Positions 3,827 through 31,990 are shown, numbered from the stretch's first letter. The stretch: 32,000 nucleotides of DNA from Halomicronema hongdechloris C2206 (GCF_002075285.3 NZ_CP021983.2:300001-332000), one strand, 5' to 3'. Notes: generated from the sequence alone by a model not told the origin. Translations and numbers: made by a program.

Positions 3827-4018
3827 GGAAAACTCGAGGAAAACTCAGGCACTTACCCATAAACACGGAGAGCCCTACCGCGAAAACCGAGAAAAATCTT
3901 TACAAATTCGCTAAATCACTTCAGAATCCTTCAATATCTATTACAGTGCCCTTAAAGCCCTTGACGCCTATGGCCTATGGTCCTTTCAGCCTTGGGTTCA
4001 GCCTTGGGTAAAGTCCCA

Positions 4019-12174: not shown

Positions 12175-12879
12175 TCAAACTAGCAGACGCTCCAGAGCAT
12201 CAATGTCTGGAATCCGCATAATATCGCGCTCTCGCACGATCAAAGTCTTTTTCTCCAGTTTGCTGAGAACCCGAGTCACTGTCTCTCGAGCTAGGCCACT
12301 CAAACTACTGAGTTCTCGATGGGGTAAATTAGGAATCTCAACGCCATTATCCCCCTCTTGCCCCTGACCATCCGCTAGAAACAAGATAATGTCGGCCACC
12401 CGAGACATACTGTCCGACTCTCGGAGACGCAAGCGGCGATTTACCTGACGTAAACGCCGAGCCATGAGTTGAGCCAATCGAATACCCGCAATAGGTTCGG
12501 TGTGGATGAGATGCACAAAATCGTTGGCTGGCATATTGCCAATCATGGTGGGCACTAAGGTAATCACATCCGTGGAGCGAGGCACCTCATCTAGGGGAGC
12601 CATTTCCCCGAAGACTTCTCCCTTGCCCAAAATATTCAGCGTTACCTCTTTGCCGTCTAGATTGTAGGTACGAATTTTGACCCAACCGTCCAAAATAAAA
12701 TAAACAGAGGATCCCCAGTCATTCTCTAGCAGCAACACCTGGTTAGCAGGGTGTCGACGAGTAACAACCTGAGCCGTTGCCTGCTGCACTGCGGCGTCAG
12801 GAATACCTTGAAAGAAAGGAGCTGAGCGGATCAACTCACTCTCTGAGTGATGATCACGAGGGCCGTAGCGAGGGTCCAT
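12175..12879 (-). CDS. Crp/Fnr-family transcriptional regulator
   Basis: 234 aa. The cNMP-binding beta-barrel signature is VYFILDGWVKIRT...GKGEVFGEMA. The C-terminal HTH is HRELSSLSGLARETVTRVLSKLEKKTLI. It does not match the NtcA sequence as I recall it. Confidence 0.9.
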   Translation of the reverse strand: MDPRYGPRDHHSESELIRSAPFFQGIPDAAVQQATAQVVTRRHPANQVLLLENDWGSSVYFILDGWVKIRTYNLDGKEVTLNILGKGEVFGEMAPLDEVPRSTDVITLVPTMIGNMPANDFVHLIHTEPIAGIRLAQLMARRLRQVNRRLRLRESDSMSRVADIILFLADGQGQEGDNGVEIPNLPHRELSSLSGLARETVTRVLSKLEKKTLIVRERDIMRIPDIDALERLLV

Positions 12880-13410
12880 AGGTTACTACACTAAGTTCTG
12901 GTCAGGGAAACGGATTCGACATGCTATTGAGCCGATAGTCATGCCCGCAGCCCACCACTGCCGCTAGAGACAGTCCAGGCTCAGGGTAGCTATGGGTTAC
13001 TAGCCATGCTTACCATCTCCCTAAGGGAGTCATCAGGTAAAATCAGCAGGTTTACGGATATATTGGCTATCGTTTTCATCCAGGCTGATCAATAGTGGCC
13101 GCAGGGAGTCCTCTGGCAAACTTTCCCAGAAACCTATTAACATACTACCCCGGAGATTTCCTCCCTCTGACCCCGGTGCCACCATCGGTCGACCTCTGGG
13201 CATCAATGCGCTTAGCCACGAAGTATTCGTCACGTCTAACTAAGGCATTCTGTGACGTTTTGTGTGAGTTGGCCTACACTTTGGGCAATCCCTCGGTTAT
13301 CGAGGGCAGTAGCTGATGATTTTCTTGGACTTGGGGGCCTTTATATACCGAGGTGGATTTGGTACCACCGTATTGTAGGCGCTAAATGGGTATGCCTTGA
13401 TGGATTTAAG

Positions 13411-16400
13411 GTGGGTAAGGTGACAGAGCAACGGGATCAACTCGAGACGCTAATAGAAGATATCGATGCCCTTTTGAAGAAGGCATCTCCTCGGTTTGGG
13501 CGTGGTGCCCAGGAGGACAGTCAACAGCGTCAGATCCTGGAGCGAGCCCGCCAGCACATCCTTGATCTGCAGCAATGGATGACTGCGCCGGGAGGGTGGG
13601 GACCAATTGATCCTGCCAGTGGTGCCGTTGACCCTCCTGAGGATTCTAATCCGGATCTTACTGAGTCAGCCCAAACCGTGCTACGGGCATTGCTACAAGA
13701 GATGCAATACCTGCGCAGCCAGTTCATTCAACCCTTGCGTACTGAGATAGAGACACTGCAGCAGGAGCGGACTGAGTTACTGGAACAGGTGCGGCAATTA
13801 GAAGTGGAGCGTCTCAGGCTGCAAGGACAGTCTCCTGAGCCATCTTCCCAGCAGGAGTGGATACAAGTGGTGGCCCACCACCTAGAGGCCTCCTTAGCAG
13901 AGCGCCTTGACCGGGCCGTGGCACGCCGGCAGGCAGAGACGAGTAATCGTCCCCTATTAGAAGGTACACCGCCCCAGCCAGCAGAAGCCGACCTGTCATT
14001 GCTAGATCCCCATCAGCGCTTGGCTTATGTGAGGCGAGTTCAGGCTGAAGCCGATCAGGCATTGCTCCAGCTAGACAATACCCTCCGGGCTGTCTTTGCA
14101 ACTCTGCAACAGAACGCACTCAGCTATCAAGATTCCCTAGCTCAGGGATTAGCCGCCATGCATTCCCTAGGTCAACAGGGAGAAGTCACCCTGCGGGCTC
14201 TGATCAGTGATTTGGGGCAGCAACTGCGTCAAGAAGTGGCTTACCTAGAGGCAGCAAGCACTGATGAGCAGGGGCAATTGCTAGCGGCTCAGCAGACATC
14301 CCCATCCTCAACAGAGCGGCCTGATGATACCGACACCGATAGCATCTCGACGGCGGCAACGGCTGCTGCAGCTCCTGATCTAGACTGGGAGCTGGCCGAC
14401 GAAGTTGAGTTTGAAGCCGACGAAGAAATTACTCTGTTGCAACTCGATCAGGAAATCGAGCAGTTGCAACTGGACGCTACGGCAGATCCTTCCCTATTGT
14501 TGGAAGAGGACACCGAGACAGAAGCTCCTGACGTATCGGAGCCGACTGCCGCTGCCGCTTCAGACTTTCCTGTCGATCCATTAACCGTGTTAGGGCAACT
14601 CGATCAGGCGCTCCCTGATCCTGAGCAGCGGGTAGATGTTCCCGACCGCTCCGTTGATGCCACCATTGCCGCTGCCGCTGAAGAGCTTTTCCCGGATGCT
14701 GAGGCTGAGGCTGAGGCTCTCTTTGCGGATCTATTCGGTCCAGCACCAGCATCCTCTAGCCAGGATACCGCCACCGCAGCCGAGCCTTCCATTCCTGACA
14801 ATGCTGATGAGACTACTGAATCATCTCCTGATGACAGCCTGGCCTCGTCACCAGCGGCAGATGACGATCTTTCTTTAGAGACTGACGAGACCGGAGCGCC
14901 CTCAACCAGCATAGACCGGCTAGACGAAATATTGTTTGACGAGGATCTCTTGCAGGTGCCCCCTGAGTCGTCGAACGCAGACCATCTTGGCACTGAGATA
15001 GATCTATTTGGGGAAGCTACCGCGGCAACCTTAGAGCAGCCTAGGGTTGAGGTGACCGACACCATACATTCTTTGGATCAGCTTCTCCCGAGCGGCAGCC
15101 TTGACCGCGATACTAGCAGCCCTTCCTTGGCCGAATCTGAGGCCCTAGCAGCTGAGCCATTTATTCCTGCCAGTCCCGATGAGGACTTGCTCACTACTGA
15201 GACTGATACGGAGTCGGCTTCGTCTCCTCTATCCCTTGATCCAGATATTCTGGCCCAGTTAACCGCTGACCTCTCTCGCCTGGAGGGACCATCGGTATCC
15301 GCAGAAGATGGTTTGGAATTCTTAGCTGGGGGGCAAGCCCTAGAGGAGGATGACATCCCCGAGCAGCCGACCGATAGAGAACCAGCCCCCCCACCCCCCT
15401 CCTCAGCAGCGACCTGGGCGTCAGACTCGTCTGTCTTTGAAACCACTGTGGATGACTGGAAGACGGCTGTGCAGTCCACGACAGATACCCTGCTAGATGA
15501 ATCGGGGTTGATGGCTGAGGAGCATGAGGCCGAAACACCAAGCGCCCAAGCGTCGGCTCCCCAGATGTCCTCATCGACTGCAGAGGCGCCGGAGTCTGCC
15601 CAGCATCTTGATCTTCCGGATGATGACCTAGATCCCCTCGCGGCTCAAGTGTCAGAGGTTCCCTATGGTTCCCCTAGGGCCGAACATGTTATCGATGCCG
15701 TGGGGACATCCCAATCATCGACACCTGAACCAAATTCCCCGGCCGAGTTAGATCCGGACACGCTGACTTGGGAGACCTGGGCGGATGCAGCCGCTACACC
15801 TACCTCCATTGAAGCCACCGAGGAGGACTTGGCAGAAACCCTGCCACCAGAGGACTGGCTGTCTATAGATACTAGTCCGGTAGCCACGTCAGAGGCGGAT
15901 CGGCCTGACGAGACAACGGCTGCACCAGAAATAGAGTCATATACCGCTGAGTGGAAGGACCCAGAGCAGATAGGCACTGAGGAAAATCCCGAGTCGATCG
16001 ATAGTGCCATCCCGGCGGCCTCTGAGGAGACCCGACAGTCAGCGACTACCTCAGCGCCGGAAGGTGAAGCGTCTTGGTCGTCAGATACCTCCTTGGCAGC
16101 ATCCCCACTGCCAACGACACCCGAGGCAGCCCCAGCGGCTGAGTCCATGTCTGGAGCGGCTGAGATTGACACACACGAAGCACCGATTGAATCGTCAGAG
16201 CAGCTTGAGGCCACTCTAGATGAGCAGCCCCTGGTGGAAACCGACGCCGCTGCTCCATGGCCCTCTGTGGCTGGAGAAGCCCGGGAAGAAACAGCGGCAG
16301 CTTCCGCTAATGCCAGGGTCGAAGAACCTCTGCCAGAGATGACCGCATTGTCCGGTTCTGATGCTGAGGAGGGCGGGGCAGAGTGGTCAGAGGTGCTGGC

Positions 16401-18576
16401 GACTGAGAGCGAGGATGATTGGGTAGGGCAGGATGACACCGACTCTCAGGATAGGGAGCCAGCTATTGCTGGTACGGTGCTGCGTTCCCCTAGTCCTGCC
16501 ACTGCTGACCCCTCGTCTGAGCACTCTGATTCGGTAGAAGAGGCGCGGTTGGATCAGCCTGGGGCTGAAGACGCAGGCGTGTCGGCATCAACCGACGGTG
16601 AGCAGGGCGCAACGGGTGAGTCGCGGCTGGAACCACCATTGGCAACGGCGGAGCCAACGCAGATGGCGGCGACCCCGGCTGGGATGAGTCCTGACGCTTC
16701 GGCATTGCCTGGGGAGACCTCGGGCGAGTGGTTTTTAGGGCTAGATATTGGTACCACTGGCCTGTCAGCGGTCTTGCTCAACCGGGCCGATGGTCAGGTG
16801 TATCCCCTCTATTGGATCGACTCTACTCTGGCAGATAGTGTGGCCGAGAAGATCTTTCGCTTGCCAGCAGTGGTGTCGATAGCGGCTGACTCGGGGGATA
16901 CCTCGATGCCGTGGCGGGTGCGATCGCATGGTATGGCTGCCTTAGCTGTGAACTGGGCAGAGGAGGCGGCACATCCCTACCGGCTGCTGACGGCCATGAA
17001 GCCGCTCTTGCAGCTGGGCATTCCCTACCAAGCCCCTGATACCCAGCACTGGCAACCACAGTTGCCTTGGCCCGAGGGGGACCCGCTGCCCCTGCAGGCG
17101 GTGCAGTTGGGACTGCAATCGCTGCTGCAGACCCTAACCCCTAGCCAAGGGACAGCCCTCGTTTTGGGGGCCACAGACCTCGACCAGCAATCGCTACATC
17201 AGGCCATATCCCACTTGCAAGGGGTCATCGTCAACTATCCGGCGGCATGGTCTGATACCTATAGTTTCAACCTGCGGGAAGCGATTCTGGCGGCGGGATT
17301 AGTCTCGCAACCCGATGCCATCTACTTCATCGAAGATGCGATCGCAGCGATTCTCTCTGGCCTGCCGGATCCGGACCGCCTCGCCCCGCCCCAAGTTCAG
17401 TCCCTGAAGCAGCAGAACCTTTACGGCGGCCAATGGCACGGTGGCACCGTCGTCATCAGTGCTGGGGCCAGCCTCAGCGAAATTGCCGTGGTCAACCTGC
17501 CCCACGACGCCGAGGCCCTGAGTCGAGAAGATTTTGTCCTACAGCGGCTAGACTATGGCGGCAATGCCATCGATCTGGACATCATTTGCCAGCTCTTGCA
17601 TCCCAGTGAGCGTCGCCAACCAACCCAGACATCTGCCGCCCCCGATCCAGATGACACGGGTTGGGGCTGGCAGGCAGCCCTGCCAGAGCTGGCCCATACC
17701 CCCTGGAGTAGCCTAGGGCTCTCGCAGCTATCCTTACCCCGGCCAGGGGACCCGGACCTGGAGATGCGATCGCAGCTGCAGCAACGATTAGAATCCTCCT
17801 TATTGGGGCAAACCGTCTTGGAAGCAGCCCGCCACCTGAAGCTAATCCTGCAGCACCAATCCCAATTCAACCTGGTCCTAGGGAATCAATGCTGGCAAGT
17901 GCGGCGCAAAGAGCTAGAGAGCCAAATCTTACTGCCCTATCAACGCCGACTCAACCAGGCCTTGAATCAGCTGCTGAGTCAAACCGGACTGAGCAATCAA
18001 GCCATTAACCAGGTCATTTGCACCGGTGGTACCGCCTCCCTTAAATTTCTCAGTGACTGGCTGCGACAAAAACTCCCGAACGCCACCATCATCCAGGATA
18101 CTTACCCCAGCAATCGTCCCCCCAGCTGCAGCCGCGTAGCTTATGGGTTAGTCAATCTAGCCCGATATCCCCAACTGCTGGAAAAGACTCGCCATCAATA
18201 CAGCGACTACTTCCTGCTGCTGGAGCTGTTGCGCACCTTCCCCGATCAGCCGATGCCGCTGGCTGGCATTGTCCATTTGCTCGAGCAACGGGGCATTAAC
18301 ATCCAAGCCTGCCAAGACCACCTCTTCGCACTGCTGGACGGACACTTACCACCAGGCCTACTGCCTCCACCCCAGTGGAGTAGCCATCAGCCTGGCCGAC
18401 TACAGGCCCTCAGGAGTGTTCCCCTATTTAGCCGCGGGTCGGGCCAGATCTATGTCCCTAACTCAGCCCAGTGTCAGCGACTTTGGGACTATCTCCAGCA
18501 CATCTTGGCCAATAAGCGCCAGCCCCTGCAAGAGCCCCTCGTGATTCCCCTGTGGACCATGGCCCCAGTCCCCTGA
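13411..18576 (+). CDS. giant protein: N-terminal coiled coil, ~800-aa acidic low-complexity region, C-terminal Hsp70-like (actin-fold) ATPase domain
   Basis: Single uninterrupted ORF. C-terminal motifs WFLGLDIGTTGLSAV (phosphate-1), VIVNYPAAWSDTYSFNLREAILAAGL...IEDAIAAIL, GGTVVISAGASLSEIAVV and VICTGGTASLKFL (adenosine motif) are in Hsp70 order. The start is uncertain: GTG at 13411 or 13420 is likelier than the ATG at 13252, whose first 53 codons (MTFCVSWPTLWAIPRL...) look non-native. Confidence 0.85.
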   Translation: MGKVTEQRDQLETLIEDIDALLKKASPRFGRGAQEDSQQRQILERARQHILDLQQWMTAPGGWGPIDPASGAVDPPEDSNPDLTESAQTVLRALLQEMQYLRSQFIQPLRTEIETLQQERTELLEQVRQLEVERLRLQGQSPEPSSQQEWIQVVAHHLEASLAERLDRAVARRQAETSNRPLLEGTPPQPAEADLSLLDPHQRLAYVRRVQAEADQALLQLDNTLRAVFATLQQNALSYQDSLAQGLAAMHSLGQQGEVTLRALISDLGQQLRQEVAYLEAASTDEQGQLLAAQQTSPSSTERPDDTDTDSISTAATAAAAPDLDWELADEVEFEADEEITLLQLDQEIEQLQLDATADPSLLLEEDTETEAPDVSEPTAAAASDFPVDPLTVLGQLDQALPDPEQRVDVPDRSVDATIAAAAEELFPDAEAEAEALFADLFGPAPASSSQDTATAAEPSIPDNADETTESSPDDSLASSPAADDDLSLETDETGAPSTSIDRLDEILFDEDLLQVPPESSNADHLGTEIDLFGEATAATLEQPRVEVTDTIHSLDQLLPSGSLDRDTSSPSLAESEALAAEPFIPASPDEDLLTTETDTESASSPLSLDPDILAQLTADLSRLEGPSVSAEDGLEFLAGGQALEEDDIPEQPTDREPAPPPPSSAATWASDSSVFETTVDDWKTAVQSTTDTLLDESGLMAEEHEAETPSAQASAPQMSSSTAEAPESAQHLDLPDDDLDPLAAQVSEVPYGSPRAEHVIDAVGTSQSSTPEPNSPAELDPDTLTWETWADAAATPTSIEATEEDLAETLPPEDWLSIDTSPVATSEADRPDETTAAPEIESYTAEWKDPEQIGTEENPESIDSAIPAASEETRQSATTSAPEGEASWSSDTSLAASPLPTTPEAAPAAESMSGAAEIDTHEAPIESSEQLEATLDEQPLVETDAAAPWPSVAGEAREETAAASANARVEEPLPEMTALSGSDAEEGGAEWSEVLATESEDDWVGQDDTDSQDREPAIAGTVLRSPSPATADPSSEHSDSVEEARLDQPGAEDAGVSASTDGEQGATGESRLEPPLATAEPTQMAATPAGMSPDASALPGETSGEWFLGLDIGTTGLSAVLLNRADGQVYPLYWIDSTLADSVAEKIFRLPAVVSIAADSGDTSMPWRVRSHGMAALAVNWAEEAAHPYRLLTAMKPLLQLGIPYQAPDTQHWQPQLPWPEGDPLPLQAVQLGLQSLLQTLTPSQGTALVLGATDLDQQSLHQAISHLQGVIVNYPAAWSDTYSFNLREAILAAGLVSQPDAIYFIEDAIAAILSGLPDPDRLAPPQVQSLKQQNLYGGQWHGGTVVISAGASLSEIAVVNLPHDAEALSREDFVLQRLDYGGNAIDLDIICQLLHPSERRQPTQTSAAPDPDDTGWGWQAALPELAHTPWSSLGLSQLSLPRPGDPDLEMRSQLQQRLESSLLGQTVLEAARHLKLILQHQSQFNLVLGNQCWQVRRKELESQILLPYQRRLNQALNQLLSQTGLSNQAINQVICTGGTASLKFLSDWLRQKLPNATIIQDTYPSNRPPSCSRVAYGLVNLARYPQLLEKTRHQYSDYFLLLELLRTFPDQPMPLAGIVHLLEQRGINIQACQDHLFALLDGHLPPGLLPPPQWSSHQPGRLQALRSVPLFSRGSGQIYVPNSAQCQRLWDYLQHILANKRQPLQEPLVIPLWTMAPVP

Positions 18577-21352: not shown

Positions 21353-21467
21353 CGCTGTTGCCCATCTGGGGATCCAGGCCTGAGTGATGGGTTACTCAGG
21401 GGGATCTCAGGCTGGTGCGCTATCTGTAGTCAAAGCATATGCAGAGCGAATTCAGCCTTCCGTATCT

Positions 21468-22577
21468 ATGGAGTCGTCAATTTCCCTCAAGCACCACGTT
21501 ATTCAAAATCGCATTCGCCAGGTCGGGATTAATGAGAACTACTGGTATCCCGTGGCCTGGTCCCATCAGTTGCCAGTAGGGCAAATTCTTGCCATCACCA
21601 TTTGGGGCCATTCAATTGCGGTATATCGAGATGTCCAGGGTCAGGTTCATGCCCTGGAAAATGCCTGTCCTCATAAGGGGGTTGAACTGCACTTAGGAGA
21701 GGTGCAGGGCGACTGTCTCGTCTGCCCCTACCATGGCTGGCAGTTTAATCCCCAGGGCCAGTGTGTGGCCATTCCCTATTTTCCAGCCGAGCAAAAGTTA
21801 CCACGAGCTCAAGCTCGCCGCTATCCAGCTGCCGATCAGTACGGCATGATCTGGGTCTTCCCAGGCAATAGCCAACAGGCCTCATCACAGGCAATTCCCG
21901 CCATTCCAGAGTATGACGATCCCAATTGCCTAGCCATTCCGATCACCGGCATCTTTGCGGCCCACTTCTCAATTTGCAATGAAAATACGATGGATGTCTT
22001 CCATGGGTTTTTACATAAAAATCTTCAGGGCTGGTTCAACCCGGTATTGCTAGATCTGCAGGAGGGTGACGATTACGTGAATGCTCGCTATCAGGTCTCT
22101 TATAAAGGGTTTCTCAGTCAGTTTCTAGGGCTAGGTAGCGATAATGCTGGCGTGTCTACTCGTATTGTTTCCATTCATTATCAATACCCCCATTACCACA
22201 GCACTTTGGAAGGGGTGTCATCTCTATACCTGATGCGGTTGCCGGTGAGCCCCACTCAAACTCGCTCATTCTCGTGGTTGTTTTTACCCAAAATTCGCCT
22301 GCCGAAATGGTTGCTACGGCCCCTGAAGCCAACGGTAGTTCCGCTCATTCGTCGATTGCTATTTATGCCTTTCCTGGAGCAGGATATGGCGATGATGGCC
22401 AGCGAACAGCGAACCTATAGCCGCAGCCCCAATCGACAATATGTGGAGGTGAATCCGGCCATTATCGCGCTGCAGCGCGTGATCATGAAGCAATATGAGC
22501 TGTACCAGCAACAGATGCGATGGCCAAAGGCCGGTCGTAGACCATCGCACCCCTCAGGGTTGCCTCTGCCGAATTAG
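21468..22577 (+). CDS. Rieske [2Fe-2S] non-heme-iron oxygenase (ring-hydroxylating alpha-subunit / PaO-like)
   Basis: The Rieske motif is CPHKG...(17 residues)...CPYHGWQF. The mononuclear-iron motif is NENTMDVFHGFLH (E-x3-D-x2-H-x3-H). I prefer the ATG at 21468 (MESSISL) over the upstream GTG at 21384. Confidence 0.87.
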   Translation: MESSISLKHHVIQNRIRQVGINENYWYPVAWSHQLPVGQILAITIWGHSIAVYRDVQGQVHALENACPHKGVELHLGEVQGDCLVCPYHGWQFNPQGQCVAIPYFPAEQKLPRAQARRYPAADQYGMIWVFPGNSQQASSQAIPAIPEYDDPNCLAIPITGIFAAHFSICNENTMDVFHGFLHKNLQGWFNPVLLDLQEGDDYVNARYQVSYKGFLSQFLGLGSDNAGVSTRIVSIHYQYPHYHSTLEGVSSLYLMRLPVSPTQTRSFSWLFLPKIRLPKWLLRPLKPTVVPLIRRLLFMPFLEQDMAMMASEQRTYSRSPNRQYVEVNPAIIALQRVIMKQYELYQQQMRWPKAGRRPSHPSGLPLPN

Positions 22578-22743: not shown

Positions 22744-23874
22744 ATGTTTGACTGCATTATTGTCGGGGCTGGCCCCGCCGGAGGGACTGCCGCCTATCAT
22801 CTGGCCAAGCGAGGGCATTCAGTACTCCTGCTAGATAAAGATCCCCTGCCCCGCTACAAGCCCTGCAGTGGTGCAGTCTCACCTAGTGTGGCCCAGTGGT
22901 TTGATTTTGATTTCAGCCCCGCCATCGACTTAAAGGTGAGCCGGATTCGCTACACCTGGAAACTCGGGGATGCCATTGATGCCCGCTTAAATACCTCAGA
23001 GCCGATCTGGATGGTGAAGCGGGATGTCTTCGACCATTTTCTGGTGCAGCAGGCTCAGCAGCAGGGGGCAACCCTCAAGGACAATACCCCGGTCACAGGC
23101 ATTACCTTTCAGGGCGATGGCTGGCAGGTGATGACTCCTCAAGGAGCCTTCGATGGCCGCTATCTGATTGCCGCCGATGGAGCTAAGGGACCGATGGCGG
23201 GGTGGCTCGGCTTCAAAGACCACAAACCCCGATTGACCAGTCTCTTAGAGATCAGTGCCAAGGCAGACGGCAACTCCGATGCCCCGATTCAGTTTGAGTT
23301 TGGCCTGGTCAAGAACGGGTGTTTGTGGAGTTTTCCCAAGCGCCAAGGCTATTCCATCGGGGTGGGTTCTTTCCTGGGCAATAACCTCAAGGACTTCCAA
23401 TCTCCCCTGGCCGACTATGCCGCCGAACTCGGCCTTTCCCTGAAGCAGGGCACAGAATATCAGCATCCCTTGCAACTGTGGGACGGCAATCGCCCCCTGC
23501 ATACCCAGCAGGCGCTGCTGGCCGGGGAAGCTGCGGCCATGGTAGATCCCTTGACGGCTGAGGGGATTCGACCGGCCATGTACGGTGGTGTCAAGGCTGC
23601 CGAAGCCATTGACGCCGCCCTGCAGGGAGATGCCAAGGCTCTAGCCGCCTACACAGAAGCTATCCAACAGCAATGGGGGGCTGATATGCAGTGGGCTCAG
23701 CGCATTGCCGGGTTATTTTATCGAATGCCTGGTCTGGGATTCCGAGTGGGCATCAAGCGACCCACGGCGACTGACCGCTTAGGGCAGTTACTGGCCGGAG
23801 ACATCCATTATGCTGATATTGCCAATCGAGTAATTAAGCGCCTCAGCGGCAGTCTGATTCCAGGTCGAGGCTAG
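22744..23874 (+). CDS. FAD-dependent oxidoreductase, geranylgeranyl reductase family
   Basis: The N-terminal Rossmann motif is DCIIVGAGPAGGTAAYHLAKRGHSVLLLDK. Later motifs are YLIAADGAKGP and LAGEAAAMVDPLTAEGI. At 376 aa it is shorter than ChlP and diverges from it. Confidence 0.84.
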   Translation: MFDCIIVGAGPAGGTAAYHLAKRGHSVLLLDKDPLPRYKPCSGAVSPSVAQWFDFDFSPAIDLKVSRIRYTWKLGDAIDARLNTSEPIWMVKRDVFDHFLVQQAQQQGATLKDNTPVTGITFQGDGWQVMTPQGAFDGRYLIAADGAKGPMAGWLGFKDHKPRLTSLLEISAKADGNSDAPIQFEFGLVKNGCLWSFPKRQGYSIGVGSFLGNNLKDFQSPLADYAAELGLSLKQGTEYQHPLQLWDGNRPLHTQQALLAGEAAAMVDPLTAEGIRPAMYGGVKAAEAIDAALQGDAKALAAYTEAIQQQWGADMQWAQRIAGLFYRMPGLGFRVGIKRPTATDRLGQLLAGDIHYADIANRVIKRLSGSLIPGRG

Positions 23875-23964
23875 TAGAGGGGAACGGAGGACGGAAAAGG
23901 GGTGGATGGGTGATGGGGTGTTGGCGGAGCCTGCCCGCAGGGCTTTGGGGTGATGGGGTGATGA

Positions 23965-23985
23965 GGAGTGAGGAGTGAGGAGTGA
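23965..23985. repeat. heptamer microsatellite (GGAGTGA)x3
   Basis: Three exact tandem units read directly from the sequence. They sit in a G/A-rich tract (GGGGTGATGGGGTGATGAGGAGTGAGGAGTGAGGAGTGA). Confidence 0.9.
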
Positions 23986-24010
23986 CGAGAAGGAAGGCCC
24001 CACGGGTTGA

Positions 24011-24031
24011 TGAGTTTTGAGTTTTGAGTTT
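24011..24031. repeat. heptamer microsatellite (TGAGTTT)x3
   Basis: Three exact tandem units read directly from the sequence, followed by TGAGTGAGTGAATG. Confidence 0.9.
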
Positions 24032-24471
24032 TGAGTGAGTGAATGTTTTGGCTCCCTGTCAAACGGTGGATGGGCCGGCAAGTAGGCCGATAGCGGATAA
24101 AGGATAAGAGGACAGGGTAGGGGCGCGGTTGCCGCGCCCAATGCAGAAAACCCTCCATCTCGCGTCTCCGCCGATGCGACGCGATCTTGAACGGCTGATC
24201 GACCATTCCTTCCGCGGGGTCCAGGGCGGCGGAACGCCCTGGTCGTCGGAGTCCGAGGGGAACGAGATCCCCTCGGGCGAGCTCTCTGGCTTGGAAAACC
24301 AAGTGCGGTCTTATCGAGGTCCATCGCTTCCTGGCCGATGCGATGCGACGATCTATCACTACCTATCGACCATCCCATCCGCAGGGTCCAGAGCAATGGT
24401 TCGACTGCGCTCACCACAAGCAGGTCTGGGTCGGAGAACGCTCTGGCTGCTGGCCGAGGGTGACGCTCTGG

Positions 24472-24491
24472 ATTCTCGCCTAGGCGAGAAT
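24472..24491. repeat. 20-nt perfect palindrome ATTCTCGCCTAGGCGAGAAT
   Basis: Read directly from the sequence. It lies 20 nt beyond the speA stop. It could be a hairpin terminator, but no U-tract follows on either strand. Confidence 0.6.
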
Positions 24492-24511
24492 GACGGTACT
24501 AGTGTTCAGTA

Positions 24512-26506
24512 TTATTGCCTCGGCCTAGCCAAATAGGTATAGCGCACCCAGGCGCTATGCTCATAGTGTTGTAGCAATAGCTGCGACTCGTGCAGGGTGA
24601 TCTGCCGATCCTGCAGGGCTTGTTCCGTGCGGCGGCGAATATTTTCCACCAGGTCTTCTGAGTCATACTGCACATAGCCCAGCACTTTTCGGTCATGGTG
24701 TCCCCTTTGACTACATGTTCGATCTGATAGCCTTATGGGGGTGAGGTTGGATGTGGACTGCAATTGGTGTCGCCGAACAGGTTGTGGCAGATTGCCCCAT
24801 AATCTCCTGGTAGGCTCCCCCAGAAATAGGCCCAGATAATAGGGCTCACCAGAGTTAAGGGATGCAACTCGAGTACTGATTTGACATCCCGGAGATCGAT
24901 AAATTGGTCGATTTTTGCCGTCGCTATCGCAGGTGAGGTCAGCCAAGGTAGCCCGACAACTGGGCTCTTCGTCCAGGCGATGGATGGGCATGATGGGAAA
25001 GAGCTGGCCAATGGCCCAAGCATCCGGGGCCGATTGGAAGACGGAGAGGTTGATGTAGTAGATGGAGGCCATGATCTTTTCCAGGTCTTCCAAGTCATCC
25101 GGCACATAGTCTTCATGGCGGATGATGGTGCAGATCTTGGCACAGCAGGCCCAGAAGAGTCGTTCTAGTGTGGCCCGTTCGGTGAGGCTGAGGTAGCCGA
25201 AGCTAAACAGGCTGATGGCTTCTTCTTTGAACTGGAGGGCGTCGTGGTAGACCTCTTGGTAGTTTTTCAGGCCGATGTTGGCATAGGTCTCGTAGAGTTC
25301 GCGGACTAGGGGATGGTCGTCTTCGCCGGGAGGCTCCAGGGTCGCCCCAGTGGGCACGTCACTGCTGCCCAGCACATCGAATACCAGCACGGATTGGTGA
25401 GATGCGATCGCACGGCCACTCTCGCTAATCAGGGTTGGCGGCGTTAAGTGACGGGAGGCGCAAGCCTCTTTCACTTCGGCGACGACATCGTTGGCATAAT
25501 TCTGGATGCTGTAGTTCTTAGACGCGTGAAAATTGGTCTTAGAGCCGTCGTAGTCGACCCCGAGGCCACCGCCCACGTCCAGATAGCGCATATTCGCTCC
25601 CAGGGCAGCCAGCTCCACATAAATACGACTGGCCTCGCGCAGGGCATCCTTAATTACGCTAATGGCCGAAATCTGAGAGCCAATGTGGAAATGCAGCAAC
25701 TGCAAGCAATCCAGCATATTCTCCTGGCGCAACCGTTCCACCACCGTCAGCACCTCGGGAATCGTGAGCCCAAACTTGGCCCGATCCCCGGCTGAGCTAC
25801 CCCAGCGACCAATGCCCTGGCTGCTCAGTTTGACTCGTACTCCCAGTACAGGCTGGATATCGAGGTGATGACTGGCCTGAATCACCAGATCGACTTCTTC
25901 CTGCTGTTCCAGGACGATGATCGGCACCTGCCCCAGCCGCTGCCCTAGCATGGCCGTCTCGATATACTCGCGGTCCTTATAGCCATTACAAATCAATAGG
26001 GAGCCAGGGGTGTTCAACGTGGCCAGAGCGATCAATAGCTCAGGTTTGGAGCCCGCCTCTAGGCCAAATTGATGGGGACTGCCAAAGCGAACTAAATCTT
26101 CGACCAGGTGCCGTTGCTGATTGCACTTCACCGGAAACACGCCGCGGTAGACGCCGCCATAGCGATAGCGGGCAATGGCCTTAGCAAAACAGGCTTGCAG
26201 CCGTTCCAGGCGATCCTGCAAAATGTCGGAGAAGCGAATCAGAATGGGCAGGCCTAGATTGCGCTGCTGCAGAGCCTGAACCAGTTCATAGAGGTCGAGG
26301 GAGCCACCTCGTTCCCCCTGGGGGGAGACGGTGATATGCCCGGCAGCATTGATTGAAAAATAGGGATCTCCCCAGCCTTGGATGCGGTACAGTTCTTCAC
26401 TGTCCTCGATGGTCCACGAGGCACTGGGAGCGAGTAACTGAGCAGTATCATCTGATGACGGTGACTGGGGCTGAGGCTGATAAAGCGATGATGGGATGCG
26501 ACTCAT
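24512..26506 (-). CDS. speA: biosynthetic arginine decarboxylase; the C-terminal ~75 codons are scrambled by compensating frameshifts (possible pseudogene or local sequence error)
   Basis: Strong SpeA similarity runs from WTIEDSEELYRIQGWGDPYFSIN through the PLP fold (FPVKCN, HFHIGSQ, GGGLGVDY) to LADLTCDSDGK, and again from VLGYVQYDSEDLVENIRRRTEQAL to the end. I prefer the ATG at 26506 (GGAGAA 6 nt upstream) over the ORF-track start at 26572. See the finding on 24686-24916. Confidence 0.85.
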   Translation of the reverse strand: MSRIPSSLYQPQPQSPSSDDTAQLLAPSASWTIEDSEELYRIQGWGDPYFSINAAGHITVSPQGERGGSLDLYELVQALQQRNLGLPILIRFSDILQDRLERLQACFAKAIARYRYGGVYRGVFPVKCNQQRHLVEDLVRFGSPHQFGLEAGSKPELLIALATLNTPGSLLICNGYKDREYIETAMLGQRLGQVPIIVLEQQEEVDLVIQASHHLDIQPVLGVRVKLSSQGIGRWGSSAGDRAKFGLTIPEVLTVVERLRQENMLDCLQLLHFHIGSQISAISVIKDALREASRIYVELAALGANMRYLDVGGGLGVDYDGSKTNFHASKNYSIQNYANDVVAEVKEACASRHLTPPTLISESGRAIASHQSVLVFDVLGSSDVPTGATLEPPGEDDHPLVRELYETYANIGLKNYQEVYHDALQFKEEAISLFSFGYLSLTERATLERLFWACCAKICTIIRHEDYVPDDLEDLEKIMASIYYINLSVFQSAPDAWAIGQLFPIMPIHRLDEEPSCRATLADLTCDSDGKNRPIYRSPGCQISTRVASLNSGEPYYLGLFLGEPTRRLWGNLPQPVRRHQLQSTSNLTPIRLSDRTCSQRGHHDRKVLGYVQYDSEDLVENIRRRTEQALQDRQITLHESQLLLQHYEHSAWVRYTYLARPRQ

Positions 26507-26660
26507 AGGGGTTCTCCGCCGTTTTAGGCCAACCTCATGATGCCCGCCAGCCCCTCCTGAGGTCCCAAACACAAGGACGGCCTAGGGCTAAGCACTAGGC
26601 CAGGAGAGCTGTAGGATTACACAGGCTTACGGGCTCAAATTGTAACAAAGAGCCCTAGGG

Positions 26661-27644
26661 CTATTGAGGGGGTACCGAGGAATTCCCCTGATCTGGAAAG
26701 GGCAGGGATACCACTGGGGATGCACTGTCGATCATGTCGAGGGGAACCTGCTGGACGACCGTCTTGAAAATATCGATGAAGGCGTACACGGCTGGGGGCA
26801 GCAGGGCATCCTTCAGGACGATCAATCCGATCACGCGCTCTAGGGGCACTGGAACCTCGGCAACGCGAATGCCTGAGGGGATCGGTTCTGCCGCCAGGCG
26901 AGCCATGATGGTGGCCCCTAGCCCCCGTTTCACCATGCCCAGAATGGTGGAATCTTCTTTGACTTCGTAGGTGGGCTTCACGGTCACCCCACATCGCCTC
27001 AGATGGCGATCGACGTAGGTGCGATCGCTATCGTGGGCTGGTCCTAAGATCAGCGGGTAGGTGGATAGGTGGGGCCAGGTGAAGGGCTGGGGCGGAGGCT
27101 CTGGAGCCGGTGGCAGCAGCACTACGTAGCGATCGTGGAGCAGTTCCCAGGCTTCGAACTCCGGCTGGGTGGGAAGGTAGGTAAAGCCGACATCGGCGCG
27201 CCCCTGGCGCAGATCCTCTTCGACTTGCTGAAAGTTTTGGTATTCGTTGATGGTGATGCCTAAGCCGGGATATTGCTGGCGAAATTGCTGGATCACCACT
27301 GGCAGCAGATGGGTGGCAACGCTACGAAAACCGGCAATGCGTACCTGCCCGGCCTGCAGGCCCCGAGCCGCTTGGGCTTGGCGACAGAGATGCTCTAGGC
27401 CCTGCAAGACCCGGCGCGCCTCTTCGGTGATTTGAGCCCCAATGGGAGTGAGGATGGCCCCCTGACGACTGCGGCTCAAGAGCACCACTCCCAATTCCTC
27501 CTCTAGGGTTGCGATCGCATGACTAACAGCCGACTGCGACAAATTTAATTGCAACGCCGCATCACTGAAGGAGCCGCTGTCCGCAATGGTGACCAGGGCC
27601 CGCAATTGGGAAATTTTTAGTCGATAGGGGTTAATCTTACCCAT
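26661..27644 (-). CDS. LysR-family transcriptional regulator
   Basis: The HTH is LKISQLRALVTIADSGSFSDAALQLNLSQSAVSHAIATLEEELG, followed by a LysR substrate-binding domain. I prefer the ATG at 27644 (MGKINPY) over the ORF-track start at 27767. It is divergent from the TauE-like gene. Confidence 0.87.
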   Translation of the reverse strand: MGKINPYRLKISQLRALVTIADSGSFSDAALQLNLSQSAVSHAIATLEEELGVVLLSRSRQGAILTPIGAQITEEARRVLQGLEHLCRQAQAARGLQAGQVRIAGFRSVATHLLPVVIQQFRQQYPGLGITINEYQNFQQVEEDLRQGRADVGFTYLPTQPEFEAWELLHDRYVVLLPPAPEPPPQPFTWPHLSTYPLILGPAHDSDRTYVDRHLRRCGVTVKPTYEVKEDSTILGMVKRGLGATIMARLAAEPIPSGIRVAEVPVPLERVIGLIVLKDALLPPAVYAFIDIFKTVVQQVPLDMIDSASPVVSLPFPDQGNSSVPPQ

Positions 27645-27818
27645 ACAGTAGACTCCACCCCCCCATGCCGATGATGTGATGGACAATGACAAAATAGTAG
27701 CCTTCTTCAGTTCTCCTGTGGGTCCTTCCCTGCCCCCGGATTGCCTGGACAAGGTGCCTTTCAACAATTAGCGTGATCCTAACTCAACTGTCCTCATGCA
27801 ATCTGGGGGATGCTGATG

Positions 27819-28193
27819 GTGGTGAGTGCAGTCGAACCACCGCCCTAGATCCCGTGGACGGGCTTGTTGGTGAGTAGTCATAGACCTCGATAAGACCATG
27901 CTTAATTGTGCAGCTCGGGGTACTCACCCGGGGAAATTTCGCTTTCCCCGGACCCCTACGACCAGGGCAAACCGCTTGTAGTGTTCGCAAAGCGGCTCCG
28001 CAGGAGCAACGAAGTCGAACTACTGCCCTGGACCTGCGGAAGGACTTATCGGTTAGGCGCAATAGATCGCGTCGCATCGGCAAGGACGCGAGGGACCTTT
28101 CCCCCTTATTCCCTGTCCCCTCTTCACGCTTTACCCTTCGACTGCGCTCAGGGCAAGCTCTTCACTCTTCACTCCCCGTCTCTCCGTCCTCCG
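27819..28193 (-). repeat. structured intergenic repeat, copy B (inverted relative to copy A)
   Basis: Its reverse complement aligns block by block with 23885-24417 (see copy A). Hairpins are at 27928-27951 and 27962-28031, the latter enclosing a nested CCGCTT/AAGCGG hairpin at 27972-27995. The copy occupies most of the lysR/tauE divergent intergenic region. Confidence 0.8.
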
Positions 28194-28201
28194 CTCTGCC
28201 T

Positions 28202-28918
28202 ATGACCGATAGCCTATTGACCGCCGCCGTCTTATTTGGGGCCACCTTGATTTCCTCTACCTTTGGCTTCGGCAGTGCTCTCTTTGCCATGCCCCTCTTG
28301 ACCCTGGTGGTTGGCATTGAGACAGCGACTCCCTTGTTCGGTTTGGTTGGCCCCACCATCGCCATCTCGATTGCCATCATGAGCTGGCAAGAGATTCAAT
28401 TAACCGTCACCAGTCGCCTAATTGCGGCTACCCTCTGCGGCCTTCCCATTGGGGTCTGGCTGATCCGCACCCTTCCTGGGGACTGGTTAGCCGATGGCCT
28501 CGGTGTGGCCCTGATTGGGTTTGGTCTCTATCGCCTGGGCCGGGTCACCCTGCCGAGACTGATTCATCCCGGTTGGGCCTACCCCTTTGGTTTCGTGGCC
28601 GGCATCCTAGCCGGGGCTTACAACACCAACGGTCCACCCGTAGTGGTCTATGGCAACTTGTGTCGCTGGCCGCCAGAGCGATTTCGAGCCACATTGCAGG
28701 GCTATTTTCTGCCAACCGGCTTAGCGATTCTGGCCAGTCATGGTCTCGGGGGGCTTTGGAGTGTTCACATTTTTCAGCTCTATGGTCTCTCGTTGCCCCT
28801 GGTCTTCCTAGCCGTCTGGATGGGCCACTGGTTGAATCGACGGCTACCGACCGAGCAATTCGAGCGGTTCTTGTCTGGGTTGCTGCTGGTGCTCGGCAGC
28901 TTGATGATTTGGCGCTAG
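28202..28918 (+). CDS. TauE/SafE-family (DUF81) anion exporter membrane protein
   Basis: 238 aa from the ATG at 28202 (MTDSLLTAAVLFGATLISSTFGFGSALFAMPLL), with 7-8 hydrophobic helices and two-half internal symmetry typical of the family. The ORF-track extension back to 27908 runs through the repeat and I reject it. Confidence 0.83.
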   Translation: MTDSLLTAAVLFGATLISSTFGFGSALFAMPLLTLVVGIETATPLFGLVGPTIAISIAIMSWQEIQLTVTSRLIAATLCGLPIGVWLIRTLPGDWLADGLGVALIGFGLYRLGRVTLPRLIHPGWAYPFGFVAGILAGAYNTNGPPVVVYGNLCRWPPERFRATLQGYFLPTGLAILASHGLGGLWSVHIFQLYGLSLPLVFLAVWMGHWLNRRLPTEQFERFLSGLLLVLGSLMIWR

Positions 28919-29016
28919 TCCCCAGGCCTGCCTCTCCCTGGGACCTCCCCTCACTGAGCAGTGCTCCACTCTTCGACCGTGGGTCTTACTGCCATGCATT
29001 GCTTACCCAGACTCAA

Positions 29017-29063
29017 GCAGAACGACCCACGAGCAGAAGGACCCACGAGCAGAACGACCCACG
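29017..29063. repeat. 16-nt tandem repeat x2.9 (GCAGAACGACCCACGA)
   Basis: The units are 29017-29032, 29033-29048 (one C->G difference) and 29049-29063. It is intergenic. Confidence 0.85.
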
Positions 29064-30373: not shown

Positions 30374-30400
30374 CGTTGGCGGTGTTGATTGGAGTGCTTC

Positions 30401-31990
30401 ATGCGAGATCTCTTTGCCCGGGAAGCCTTAGCTCACATTCCTAAGCTCCTCACCCTTCAGGACCGCAATCCCCACAGTCCTACCTATGGCTGCTTCGATC
30501 GCAATTTCTGGCAGTACAAGATCATCGATTTTCCCAGTGGCATGGCCCAGGAGTTTGTCTGGCCCTTGGCCCTGGCCTATGACACGGACTTAGCGGGGAA
30601 TGAGTTCTACCGGCAACCGCGGCTACGGGACTGGGTGGAGGCGGGGATCCGCTATGCGGCGTCTAGTGCCCATCGGGATGGCTCCTGTGATGATTATTTT
30701 CCCTTTGAGCGAGCCAGCGGCGCGGCGGCCTTCTCGTTGCTGGCCTGTTTGCAGAGCTATCGGTTGCTGGATCTCGATGATCCCAAGTTGCTGCGGTTCT
30801 TTGAGAAACGGGCTGACTGGCTAGCTCACCACCTGGAGAGCGGTCGCCTGACTAACCACCAGGCATTGATTGCGCTGTGTTTGGAGTTGGCGTCTCGGTT
30901 GCTGGGCACCGATAAATGGGCGGCTGCCATTCAGAACCGGTTGGAGCTGGTGTTTTCCTGGCAAAATCCGGAGGGATGGTTTCAGGAGTATGAGGGCTGT
31001 GATCCGGGCTATCACACCCTGACGCTGGGCTGTTTGGCCTGGCTCTATGATCTACGGCCCAGCTCCCGCCTCAAGGATGCGATCGCAAAGGGGGTCAACC
31101 TCACCGCCTACTTTGTCCATCCCGATGGTTCCTACGGCGGCGAATATACCAGCCGCAACACCTACAATTTCTTCCCCCATGGCTTTGAGCGCATCGGCCG
31201 CTGGTTTCCGCCAGCCCTCAGTATCAACGACTGCATCCTGGAAGGGCTGGCCCAGGGGAAAGGAGCCTGCTATGCCGATGACCATATCGTGGGGCACCAC
31301 AGCTGGAGTTATCTACTGGCTTGGCGCGACTTCGTGGCCGAGCGACCGCCACTGAAGCCGCCCTCGATGGGGCGCCTATGGCTGCCCGAGGCCCGTATCT
31401 TGATCGACCAGCGGGCCGATACCCGTCTCTACCTGGCCCTGAATAAGGGGGGCGCCTTTAAGGTCTTTCGTGACGAGCGGCTACTGCTCTCCGATACTCA
31501 ATTTTCCCTGGTGGTGCGTCAGGGCCGCAAGGTGAAAAACGCCGTCGGCCATCTGGTGGGTCCCTATCGCTATCACCTGGGCGAGGACGAGGTCGTGGTG
31601 GAAGGGTCCCTGGGCTGGGCCAAGCAGAAGCAGATGACGCCGCTGAATCTGATCATCCTACGATTGGTGATGCTGACGGTGGGTCGCTTCTTCCCCAACC
31701 TGATTCGCAAGCTGCTGCAGACCCTGCTGATTACTGGCAAGACGCCAGCACCGTTTCGCTTTCGCCGCCAGTTGCGCTGGCAGCAGGGGCGCTGGCAACT
31801 GCGGGACGAACTGCGGGCTGATTCCTGGAGTCAGGTGATGGCCGTTGGCATCGGCCCCGACCAGACCTCTATCTATGTGGTCATGAGTCGCACCTTTCAA
31901 ACCGGACAGTTGCACCCCTGGCTGGATCTGACCCCCCAGGTACGGCAGTTGTCGCCTGGAGAGCCCCTGATCGTGGAGCGTACCCTATGA
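30401..31990 (+). CDS. hypothetical protein (529 aa), possibly an alpha/alpha-toroid fold
   Basis: Long ORF 27 nt downstream of the GT2 gene. It has recurring D/EG-aromatic motifs (HRDGSCDDYF, QNPEGWFQEY, HPDGSYGGEY) like those of toroid-repeat enzymes. No family is recognised with confidence. Confidence 0.72.
   Translation: MRDLFAREALAHIPKLLTLQDRNPHSPTYGCFDRNFWQYKIIDFPSGMAQEFVWPLALAYDTDLAGNEFYRQPRLRDWVEAGIRYAASSAHRDGSCDDYFPFERASGAAAFSLLACLQSYRLLDLDDPKLLRFFEKRADWLAHHLESGRLTNHQALIALCLELASRLLGTDKWAAAIQNRLELVFSWQNPEGWFQEYEGCDPGYHTLTLGCLAWLYDLRPSSRLKDAIAKGVNLTAYFVHPDGSYGGEYTSRNTYNFFPHGFERIGRWFPPALSINDCILEGLAQGKGACYADDHIVGHHSWSYLLAWRDFVAERPPLKPPSMGRLWLPEARILIDQRADTRLYLALNKGGAFKVFRDERLLLSDTQFSLVVRQGRKVKNAVGHLVGPYRYHLGEDEVVVEGSLGWAKQKQMTPLNLIILRLVMLTVGRFFPNLIRKLLQTLLITGKTPAPFRFRRQLRWQQGRWQLRDELRADSWSQVMAVGIGPDQTSIYVVMSRTFQTGQLHPWLDLTPQVRQLSPGEPLIVERTL

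Follow-up and report, generated by a model that had tools for sequence, protein, structure and literature searches.

Two intergenic repeat composites flanking LysR-speA in Halomicronema hongdechloris C2206, probably mosaics of small dispersed repeats

Here we report the structure and probable nature of two related composites of repeated DNA, A and B, in the Halomicronema hongdechloris C2206 genome. Both lie in a stretch of 32,000 nt (GCF_002075285.3, NZ_CP021983.2:300001-332000), which was analysed as a whole and is called the window below; positions are counted from its first nucleotide unless a genome position or another contig is named. Composite A occupies the convergent spacer between the gene of a GGR-like FAD oxidoreductase (22744-23874, +) and speA (24512-26506, -), with its outer end 10 nt past the oxidoreductase stop codon. 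Composite B occupies the divergent spacer between the gene of a LysR regulator (26661-27644, -) and that of a TauE exporter (28202-28918, +), with its outer end 9 nt before the TauE ATG. A preliminary description, made from the sequence alone, had proposed that the spacers hold two copies of one element, either a structured RNA or a non-autonomous mobile element. Our analysis indicates that the two loci are probably not one structured RNA gene and are instead mosaics of small dispersed repeats, similar to bacterial interspersed mosaic elements (BIMEs) and to the units known as small dispersed repeats (SDRs).

Results

The two composites share a homologous core, which spans 24155-24425 (+) in copy A and 27811-28098 (-) in copy B and is collinear, inverted and non-coding. 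A repeat finder returned three collinear inverted arm pairs (24159-24423 versus 27813-28098, 75-88% complementarity), and MAFFT aligned both copies collinearly, with arms that are 72-88% identical according to the two programs. The second, inverted copy of the element in the oxidoreductase-speA spacer is thus confirmed. The four blocks of identity that had been named were all found at their places: GCCGATGCGACGCGATCT at 24170-24187 (+) and 28064-28081 (-), where two matches were obtained in 0 of 100 shuffles; GGTTCGACTGCGCTCACC at 24398-24415 (+) and 27821-27838 (-), with one mismatch; GGTCTTATCGAGGTC at 24307-24321 (+) and 27883-27897 (-); and the 11-mer CGGAGGACGGA at 23885-23895 (+) and 28183-28193 (-). 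Each of these block pairs is improbable by chance. The extent originally given to the element stands for the core and fails for the left 270 nt of copy A, which apart from the 11-mer are matched in copy B only by purine-rich short repeats of the same class.

Internally, copy A is a tandem duplication of a unit of ~165 nt. According to folds and alignment, the first unit, U1 (24159-24323, +), comprises the hairpins H0, H1 and H2 and the block GGTCTTATCGAGGTC; the second, U2 (24324-24425, +), duplicates the 5' part of U1 and carries a 24-nt module where U1 has the loop of H1. The core of copy B consists of U1 and a truncated U2. The three-block pattern CGATGCGAYGCGA...TCCGCNGG...TCCAG matches the window at 24172, 24336 and 28028 only, with 0 matches expected. 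In U1 of copy A, H0 pairs 24161-24166 with 24178-24183, H1 is formed by 24221-24228/24235-24242 and H2 by 24252-24261/24268-24277; in copy B, H1 is formed by 28024-28031/27962-27969 and H2 occupies 27928-27951 (-; CCGGGGAAA-GCGAAA-TTTCCCCGG). Between the copies, 48 nt have been inserted and 32 nt (H0 of U2) deleted, and the tandem duplication is a further difference. The overlapping open reading frames (ORFs) of the region have no match in Pfam, the open frames differ and shift between the copies, and no homologue was found with a concatenated six-frame translation of both copies as protein query. This bears out the earlier view that the element is non-coding, as well as the observation that PMRRDL is the peptide shared by the ORFs.

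The blocks of identity belong to repeat modules that have further copies at other sites of the host genome, also as tandem arrays. The evidence for dispersal comes from the published tandem-repeat table of the host genome (Tandem Repeats Finder; PMC6416890), which lists tandem arrays only; array loci were counted in four of its six parts, which cover ~3.65 Mb or about two thirds of the genome. The arrays listed at 303985, 324011 and 329016 are those at 3985, 24011 and 29016 of the window, and the speA product encoded in the window has 100% identity to that of H. hongdechloris C2206. From the outer end of composite A inwards, the 11-mer at 23885-23895 represents 1.5 units of the heptamer CGGAGGA, which has arrays (CGGAGGA/GCGGAGG) at genome positions 511,204, 2,301,014 and 2,774,822. 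The adjoining 40-nt module (GGCGGAGCCTGCCCGCAGGGCTT-GGGGTGATGGGGTG, in which GGCGGAGCCTGCCCGCAGGGCTT is combined with GGGGTGAT octamers; 23908-23960, +) matches a period-40 array at 126193-126286 in 51 of 53 positions (E 2e-21). It is followed by the purine-rich short tandem arrays TGGGGTGA x2.2, TGAGGAG x4 and TGAGTTT x3.7 (23946-24036, +). Purine-rich 7-8-mer arrays of the types seen in the window were counted at about 74 loci. The next module is a GC-rich hairpin, GGGCGCGG-TTG-CCGCGCCC, joined to AATGCAG (24121-24146, +), which matches a period-21 array at 2,863,786 in 19 of 20 positions. The 24-nt module of U2 (GGTTCGACTGCGCTCACCACAAGC; 24398-24421, +) matches the arrays at 4,973,535 (x4; 23/25) and 5,452,089 (x9; 20/22).

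Composite B is built in the same way. Its U2 holds a copy of the 24-nt module with a 5-bp GGTGG/CCACC stem (GGTTCGACTGCACTCACCACCATC; 27815-27838, -), and a third copy in the opposite orientation, with a CCC/GGG stem (CCCTTCGACTGCGCTCAGGGCAAGCT; 28134-28159, +), matches a period-38 array of four units at 2,832,141 in 23 of 26 positions. The loop of H1 is filled by a 48-nt module (27974-28021, -) that is 43/48 identical to a period-48 array of three units at 2,291,741 (E 4e-11). When this module is deleted from the sequence of copy B, the H1 loop measures 6 nt, as it does in copy A and in the orthologue of A in a close relative, and the remainder fits both of these, with one 1-nt gap elsewhere; because its removal restores the short loop and a nearly gapless alignment, the 48-nt unit is an exact module that the hairpin loop either contains or lacks. 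The outer end of composite B consists of pyrimidine-rich short repeats (CTCTTCA x2.4 and CTCTCCGT-type; 28158-28197, +), within which CTCTCCGTCCTCCG matches an array at 2964650 in 14 of 14 positions. All modules are intergenic within the window.

For the 40-nt module, which can also be written as GGAGCCTGCCCGCAGGGCTT plus GGGGTGAT repeats, comparisons of distant genome sites and of the two species give identities of 96-98%, compared with 58-66% at fourfold degenerate (4-fold) sites. It has no significant fold (z +0.66) and no match in the viral-contig scan. A second abundant heptamer class, CTGCCTT/AAGGCAG, is absent from the window and forms long arrays elsewhere in the host, e.g. at 1299810 (x22), 1964781 (x19) and 5228845 (x31; PMC6416890); some of its arrays adjoin the 48-nt and 38-nt modules, e.g. 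at 2291910 and 2832267.

The history of the sites was followed in a metagenomic contig of a close relative (L079), in which the gene order is kept, the speA protein is 86-88% identical and 4-fold sites are 58-66% identical. Copy A is present in the orthologous spacer, where the core is 77%, H1 plus H2 89%, the TGAGTTT block 91% and the speA-side tail 36% identical, and the 40-nt module is retained with 42 of 43 identities (L079 12427-12469). The other spacers of window and relative are 58-76% identical, and the core as a whole is therefore not unusually conserved; excess core conservation as a sign of function was considered and rejected, the value of 77% lying at the top of the spacer range. 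Site B of the relative keeps the purine-rich repeats, the GC hairpin (which is absent from copy B of the window) and the H0 block. It lacks 328 nt, comprising the rest of the element and ~80 nt of flanking DNA; in their place are 12 unrelated nt, with no flanking direct repeat. A reading of this site as an empty site, and thus as an insertion signature, was rejected once BLAST and re-alignment had shown the element's left part to be still there. In what appears to be the simplest history, the common ancestor already had repeats at both sites, and most of copy B was subsequently deleted in the relative. Both composites are older than the split from the close relative and have since undergone unit-sized gain or loss, tandem duplication and deletion, and the combinations of units (GC hairpin, 48-nt unit, 32-nt H0 of U2, types of array) vary among the four sites of window and relative.

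More distant relatives (L081 and L082, 75% speA identity) do not keep the synteny and contain neither the core nor the modules, and ~61 kb of relatives' loci held no further sites for the core. The mosaics are probably specific to the Halomicronema lineage. A BLASTN search with the core against the PLSDB plasmids gave no match. A scan of genome contigs, a collection that does not include the host genome, with GCCGATGCGAYGCGAN{24,34}CCGCNGG gave 76 matches, all of them chance matches in high-GC non-cyanobacteria. A stricter three-block pattern yielded one chance match each in the metagenome and viral scans; these results are uninformative on relatives because the L079 orthologue differs within the first block, which makes the pattern too strict.

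GGG and GGGG runs occur at short spacing on the purine-rich strand of every left arm (window 23900-23965 and, on the minus strand, 28098-28193; L079 12466-12500 and 8620-8680, e.g. GGGGAGTGGGGGAGTGGGGGAGTGATGGGG). As judged from these runs, the left arms have G-quadruplex potential on the sense strand of the element.

These findings bear on the proposal of a non-autonomous element, which stands insofar as the DNA is repetitive and falls insofar as there is not one discrete element with defined ends, the composites being mosaics of modules. A classical miniature inverted-repeat transposable element (MITE), or a transposon of the type formed by repetitive extragenic palindromic (REP) sequences and called REPIN, would be mobilised in trans by a transposase or a REP-associated tyrosine transposase (RAYT), and the hairpins would serve as its recognition structures. 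Two diverged copies in different intergenic contexts and opposite orientation would agree with this, as would the inverted 14-mer TGAGYGCAGTCGAA that brackets copy B (27824-27837 and 28139-28152) and the 123 ORFs related to insertion sequences (IS), from 22 families, in the host (PMC6416890). However, these 14-mers represent the independent 24-nt module; terminal inverted repeats are lacking in copy A, in agreement with the preliminary description, and neither copy has a target-site duplication. The ends are undefined, the arms grading into short tandem repeats; both sites are ancestral, and the replacement of 328 nt by 12 nt in the relative looks like a deletion. No transposase, reverse transcriptase or nuclease gene is encoded across the whole window, as had been noted for the vicinity of the repeats, and the published IS table has no entry of the IS200/IS605 or RAYT type. 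An origin as a MITE or REPIN is improbable.

The arrangement of the copies suggests a further explanation, a functional inverted-repeat pair around LysR-speA, acting either as a panhandle of untranslated regions in transcript processing or stability or as the substrate of a cassette inversion. Composites A (+) and B (-) bracket exactly these two genes, with CACCAC ends inward and CGGAGGA ends outward, and the outer ends abut the neighbouring genes. Since B is sense and A antisense to the LysR-speA strand, a read-through transcript would carry complementary ends. The relative, however, keeps the gene order but no longer has the A-complementary part of B. Comparison with it gives no sign of an inversion polymorphism, there is no recombinase nearby, and in more distant relatives speA stands in different surroundings that lack the repeats. 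We regard a paired function as very improbable.

The hairpins are individually stable. H1 and H2 have DNA fold z-scores of -3.0 to -3.3 (H2 of copy B, -3.05), and the GC hairpin at 24121-24139 folds with -11.7 kcal/mol (z -3.5). Pairing was tallied in a gap-free alignment of 124 columns that contains copy A, its orthologue in L079 and copy B. Of 72 pair cells, 71 are paired; four pairs have undergone double, compensatory change (one in H1 and three in H2, the latter between A and B), and no pair of H1 or H2 is broken. In a simulation with eight random changes over 36 stem positions, the observed pattern had P <= 6e-5. The stems covary. The statement that H1 and H2 have different stems that still pair is thereby confirmed, and the more general one, that pairing rather than sequence is conserved, is correct and applies even more strongly to the 24-nt module treated below.

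The same evidence would favour a structured non-coding RNA family, in which two paralogous small RNAs or cis-acting RNAs, each of ~270 nt, have their hairpins maintained by selection on RNA structure. In addition to the compensatory changes, this is favoured by the identity of H1 plus H2 in the orthologue (89% vs 58-66% at 4-fold sites) and by a candidate long-range helix, GGYGAGY/RCTCRCC, which none of the three copies has lost and in which one pair has changed on both sides. The sense strand is weakly favoured by a T:G pair conserved at the foot of H2 and by another G:U pair in H0, and the high conservation of the 40-nt module would fit some function. Against these points, folding of the whole element on the sense strand is ordinary (minimum free energy z -1.2 and -1.9). 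RNAalifold gives an equally good and different consensus on the opposite strand (-62.6 and -69.6 kcal/mol for the two strands); the long-range pairs differ, only the local palindromes are common to both, and no strand bias was found. Rfam 15 covariance models, among them those for group II introns, retron msr, HEARO/omega RNA, 6S RNA and tmRNA, gave 0 matches at the gathering score for the whole window and 0 at E <= 10 for 23800-28300, which agrees with the earlier failure to place the element in a known RNA family by eye. No sigma-70-like promoter was found in 23700-28400, and no U-tract terminator, the single weak terminator-like site being at 23996. The copies differ by the insertion, the deletion and the internal duplication given above, copy B is mostly deleted in the relative, and the copies are oppositely placed with respect to genes, in a 3' convergent spacer and a divergent promoter spacer. 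The identity of the core falls in the range of spacers, and the conserved blocks are genome-wide repeat modules. Kept pairing is a property expected of palindromic repeat units and is by itself no sign of an RNA gene. The earlier suggestion of a structured RNA is thus not supported for an RNA gene of ~270-530 nt, and we consider such a gene unlikely.

The smallest unit of the mosaics, the 24-nt module, is also the most widespread. It has the sequence GTTCGACTNCGCTCANNACAAGC and the layout T-N-N / TTCGRCTNCGCTCA / N'-N'-A-CAAG, i.e. a hairpin with a nearly invariant 14-nt loop segment and a covarying stem of 3 bp. In 29 instances aligned in register, the three closing pairs are paired in 25, 26 and 28 cases, with two to four pair types each (UA/CG; CG/GC/AU; CG/GC/UA/GU). 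The covariation score is 0.711, compared with 0.23 after shuffling (0 of 500 shuffles reach the observed value) and <= 0.14 with the partner slid. There are three copies of the unit in the window; others lie in three tandem arrays elsewhere in the host genome, on one Anabaena plasmid and on viral contigs.

An IMG/VR scan with TTCGACTNCGCTCANNACAAG returned 23 viral-binned stretches from about 19 distinct contigs, where a rough estimate of the chance expectation is ~1. These contigs span 36-67% GC; two are rich in HIP1, and thus cyanobacterial-like, and carry three to four copies each, and one HIP1-free contig carries four copies. On L130 and L146, 33 of 35 nt are identical to window 24396-24432, including the flank AGGTCTG. 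The motif lies within the loop of a perfect 14-bp hairpin on L197 and is flanked by 7-8-mer tandem repeats on L200, L204, L205 and L206. On the phage-like contigs L184 (5633-5657) and L192 (7055-7085; near-identical to L193, L195, L199, L202, L203 and L207), the reverse complement of the motif takes up exactly the space from one gene's stop codon to the ATG of the gene that follows, as in TAA-GGCTTGTAGTGAGCGGAGTCGAACT-ATG and TAA-CTTGTACTGAGCGAAGTCGAAGT-ATG, and the start codon overlaps the 3' strand of the stem. On plasmid pANA02 of Anabaena sp. 90 (NC_019429.1, about 12600-12630; L209 1490-1525), the motif is in frame in a gene of the formylglycine-generating-enzyme family (...FKGDGSTSLTNHRPVEQVSW...) and adds roughly DGSTSLTN between FKG and HRPVEQVSW; judged from its context, this copy looks like an in-frame insertion of the mini-element into coding sequence.

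A BLAST search with a 38-nt form of the motif against annotated phages and plasmids gave matches at chance level, the Anabaena plasmid excepted. The motif is not in Rfam 15 (for 24380-24440, only a chance miRNA match with E 5.4 was obtained), and a literature search by motif sequence strings gave no match. A tRNA-like origin of GGTTCGACT was rejected: ARAGORN finds nothing, and position 61 of the would-be T-arm varies.

Tentatively, the 24-nt unit can be regarded as an undescribed and very widely distributed hairpin mini-element that crosses phyla (Halomicronema, Anabaena, phage-like contigs), a possibility to which we give limited credence. Such an element would spread into the loops of hairpins, into the gaps between stop and start codons and, with the frame kept, into genes, and the H0-H1-H2 unit would be one of its landing pads. 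It may be related to the Nostoc SDRs, across phyla and possibly carried by phages, or be a small functional RNA or DNA hairpin that is recognised via the invariant loop.

Several other features of the window lie outside the composites. A perfect 20-nt palindrome, ATTCTCGCCTAGGCGAGAAT, is located at 24472-24491, 20 nt downstream of the speA stop codon (DNA fold z -4.1); it has no T-run on either side and is not kept in L079. A 16-mer tandem repeat, AGCAGAACGACCCACG x3, at 29016-29063 in the spacer between the TauE and glycosyltransferase genes corresponds to the published array at 329016 (PMC6416890); this spacer measures 438 nt in the window and 259 nt in L079. An ORF of 397 aa for a Rieske/VanA_C-type oxygenase (21384-22577, +) has no counterpart in L079, which has a 569-nt spacer with an ORF of 58 aa there, so that the two close relatives differ by the gain or loss of a gene. 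Two ORFs of 1774 aa (13252-18576, +) and 533 aa (30389-31990, +) have no Pfam domain at E <= 1e-3 and have orthologues of 1620 aa and 529 aa in L079.

Discussion

The two loci are probably best explained as BIME/SDR-like mosaics. Their parts would be purine-rich 7-8-mer arrays, short GC-rich hairpins, the ~165-nt H0-H1-H2 unit and a mini-element of 24 nt with its 48-nt variant. The modules would have spread by copy-and-insert or by recombination, with a preference for hairpin loops and short intergenic gaps. The hairpins may have been kept because propagation or maintenance requires a single-stranded hairpin of DNA or RNA; alternatively, palindromes might correct themselves by intra-strand templating. 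The composites would have no gene-specific function at the two sites and at most incidental effects on transcript ends.

Some observations weigh against this explanation. The ~165-nt core unit (H0-H1-H2, GGTCTTATCGAGG) was found at two sites only in the ~93 kb searched (window and relatives' loci), and its blocks are absent from the published repeat table, which is restricted to tandem arrays. Neither composite as a whole showed an insertion polymorphism with an empty site. An enzyme able to move the modules was not identified, neither as a transposase in the window nor as an IS200/IS605 member in the published IS list. The identity of H1 plus H2 and of the 40-nt module exceeds that of 4-fold sites and could mean a host function.

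Several known repeat systems offer comparisons. The SDRs described by Elhai and colleagues in 2008 are reportedly units of 21-27 nt that are dispersed, apparently mobile and precisely inserted, often in larger hairpin-forming contexts, and we know of no enzyme that moves them. The 24-nt module is of SDR size, occurs at many sites, is present or absent as an exact unit, is nested in a hairpin and has an in-frame gene copy. It differs in that its host is a Leptolyngbya-like cyanobacterium and that the motif is also found in HIP1-free phage-like contigs, and the likeness to the SDRs is one of description. SDRs (Elhai et al. 2008, Genome Res 18:1484; also treated in PMC4390886 and PMC3116915) are reported as confined to Nostocaceae (PMC5861425). 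The occurrences in a Leptolyngbya-like host and in phage-like contigs would therefore extend the range known for SDRs.

The arrays recall a second system. Short tandemly repeated repetitive (STRR) sequences of heterocystous cyanobacteria, attributed to Mazel and co-workers in 1990, are said to consist of heptamers such as CCCCAGT, TTGGTCA and CAACAGT. The arrays reported here are likewise heptamer tandem repeats in intergenic DNA at many loci, with strand-asymmetric composition. Unlike STRRs, they have the units TGAGTTT, TGAGGAG, CGGAGGA, GAGTGAA and GGGGTGAT, occur in a non-heterocystous host and are joined to hairpin modules. Cyanobacterial MITEs, e.g. Nezha, are non-coding, hairpin-forming, multi-copy and intergenic. 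The repeats described here share all of these properties, but lack terminal inverted repeats and target-site duplications, and no autonomous IS related to them was identified.

REP/BIME mosaics and REPINs are known from proteobacteria (PMC3116915). Common to them and to our composites are extragenic palindromic units in variable mosaics with compensatory stems, often between convergent genes and occurring singly or as inverted pairs. In contrast, the modules reported here lack a 5' GTAG-type tetranucleotide and are longer and more heterogeneous, and conservation in the 24-nt unit falls on the 14-nt loop instead of the stem. A RAYT (IS200-like Y1 transposase) was found neither in the window nor, as an IS200/IS605 member, among the published IS entries; no search was made of the full proteome. 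In their structure, the composites are a REP/BIME-type mosaic with STRR-type arrays and an SDR-type unit, and they are neither classical MITEs nor members of an Rfam family.

For genome annotation, such regions should be masked as repeat mosaics and not listed as candidate RNA genes, as their local covariation is real but derives from palindromes. The question of how such small elements move was reportedly raised in 2008 for Nostoc. With its conserved loop and a host range that extends from a stromatolite cyanobacterium to Nostocales and phage-like contigs, the 24-nt motif offers a concrete starting point from which to look for the enzyme or RNA recognising it.

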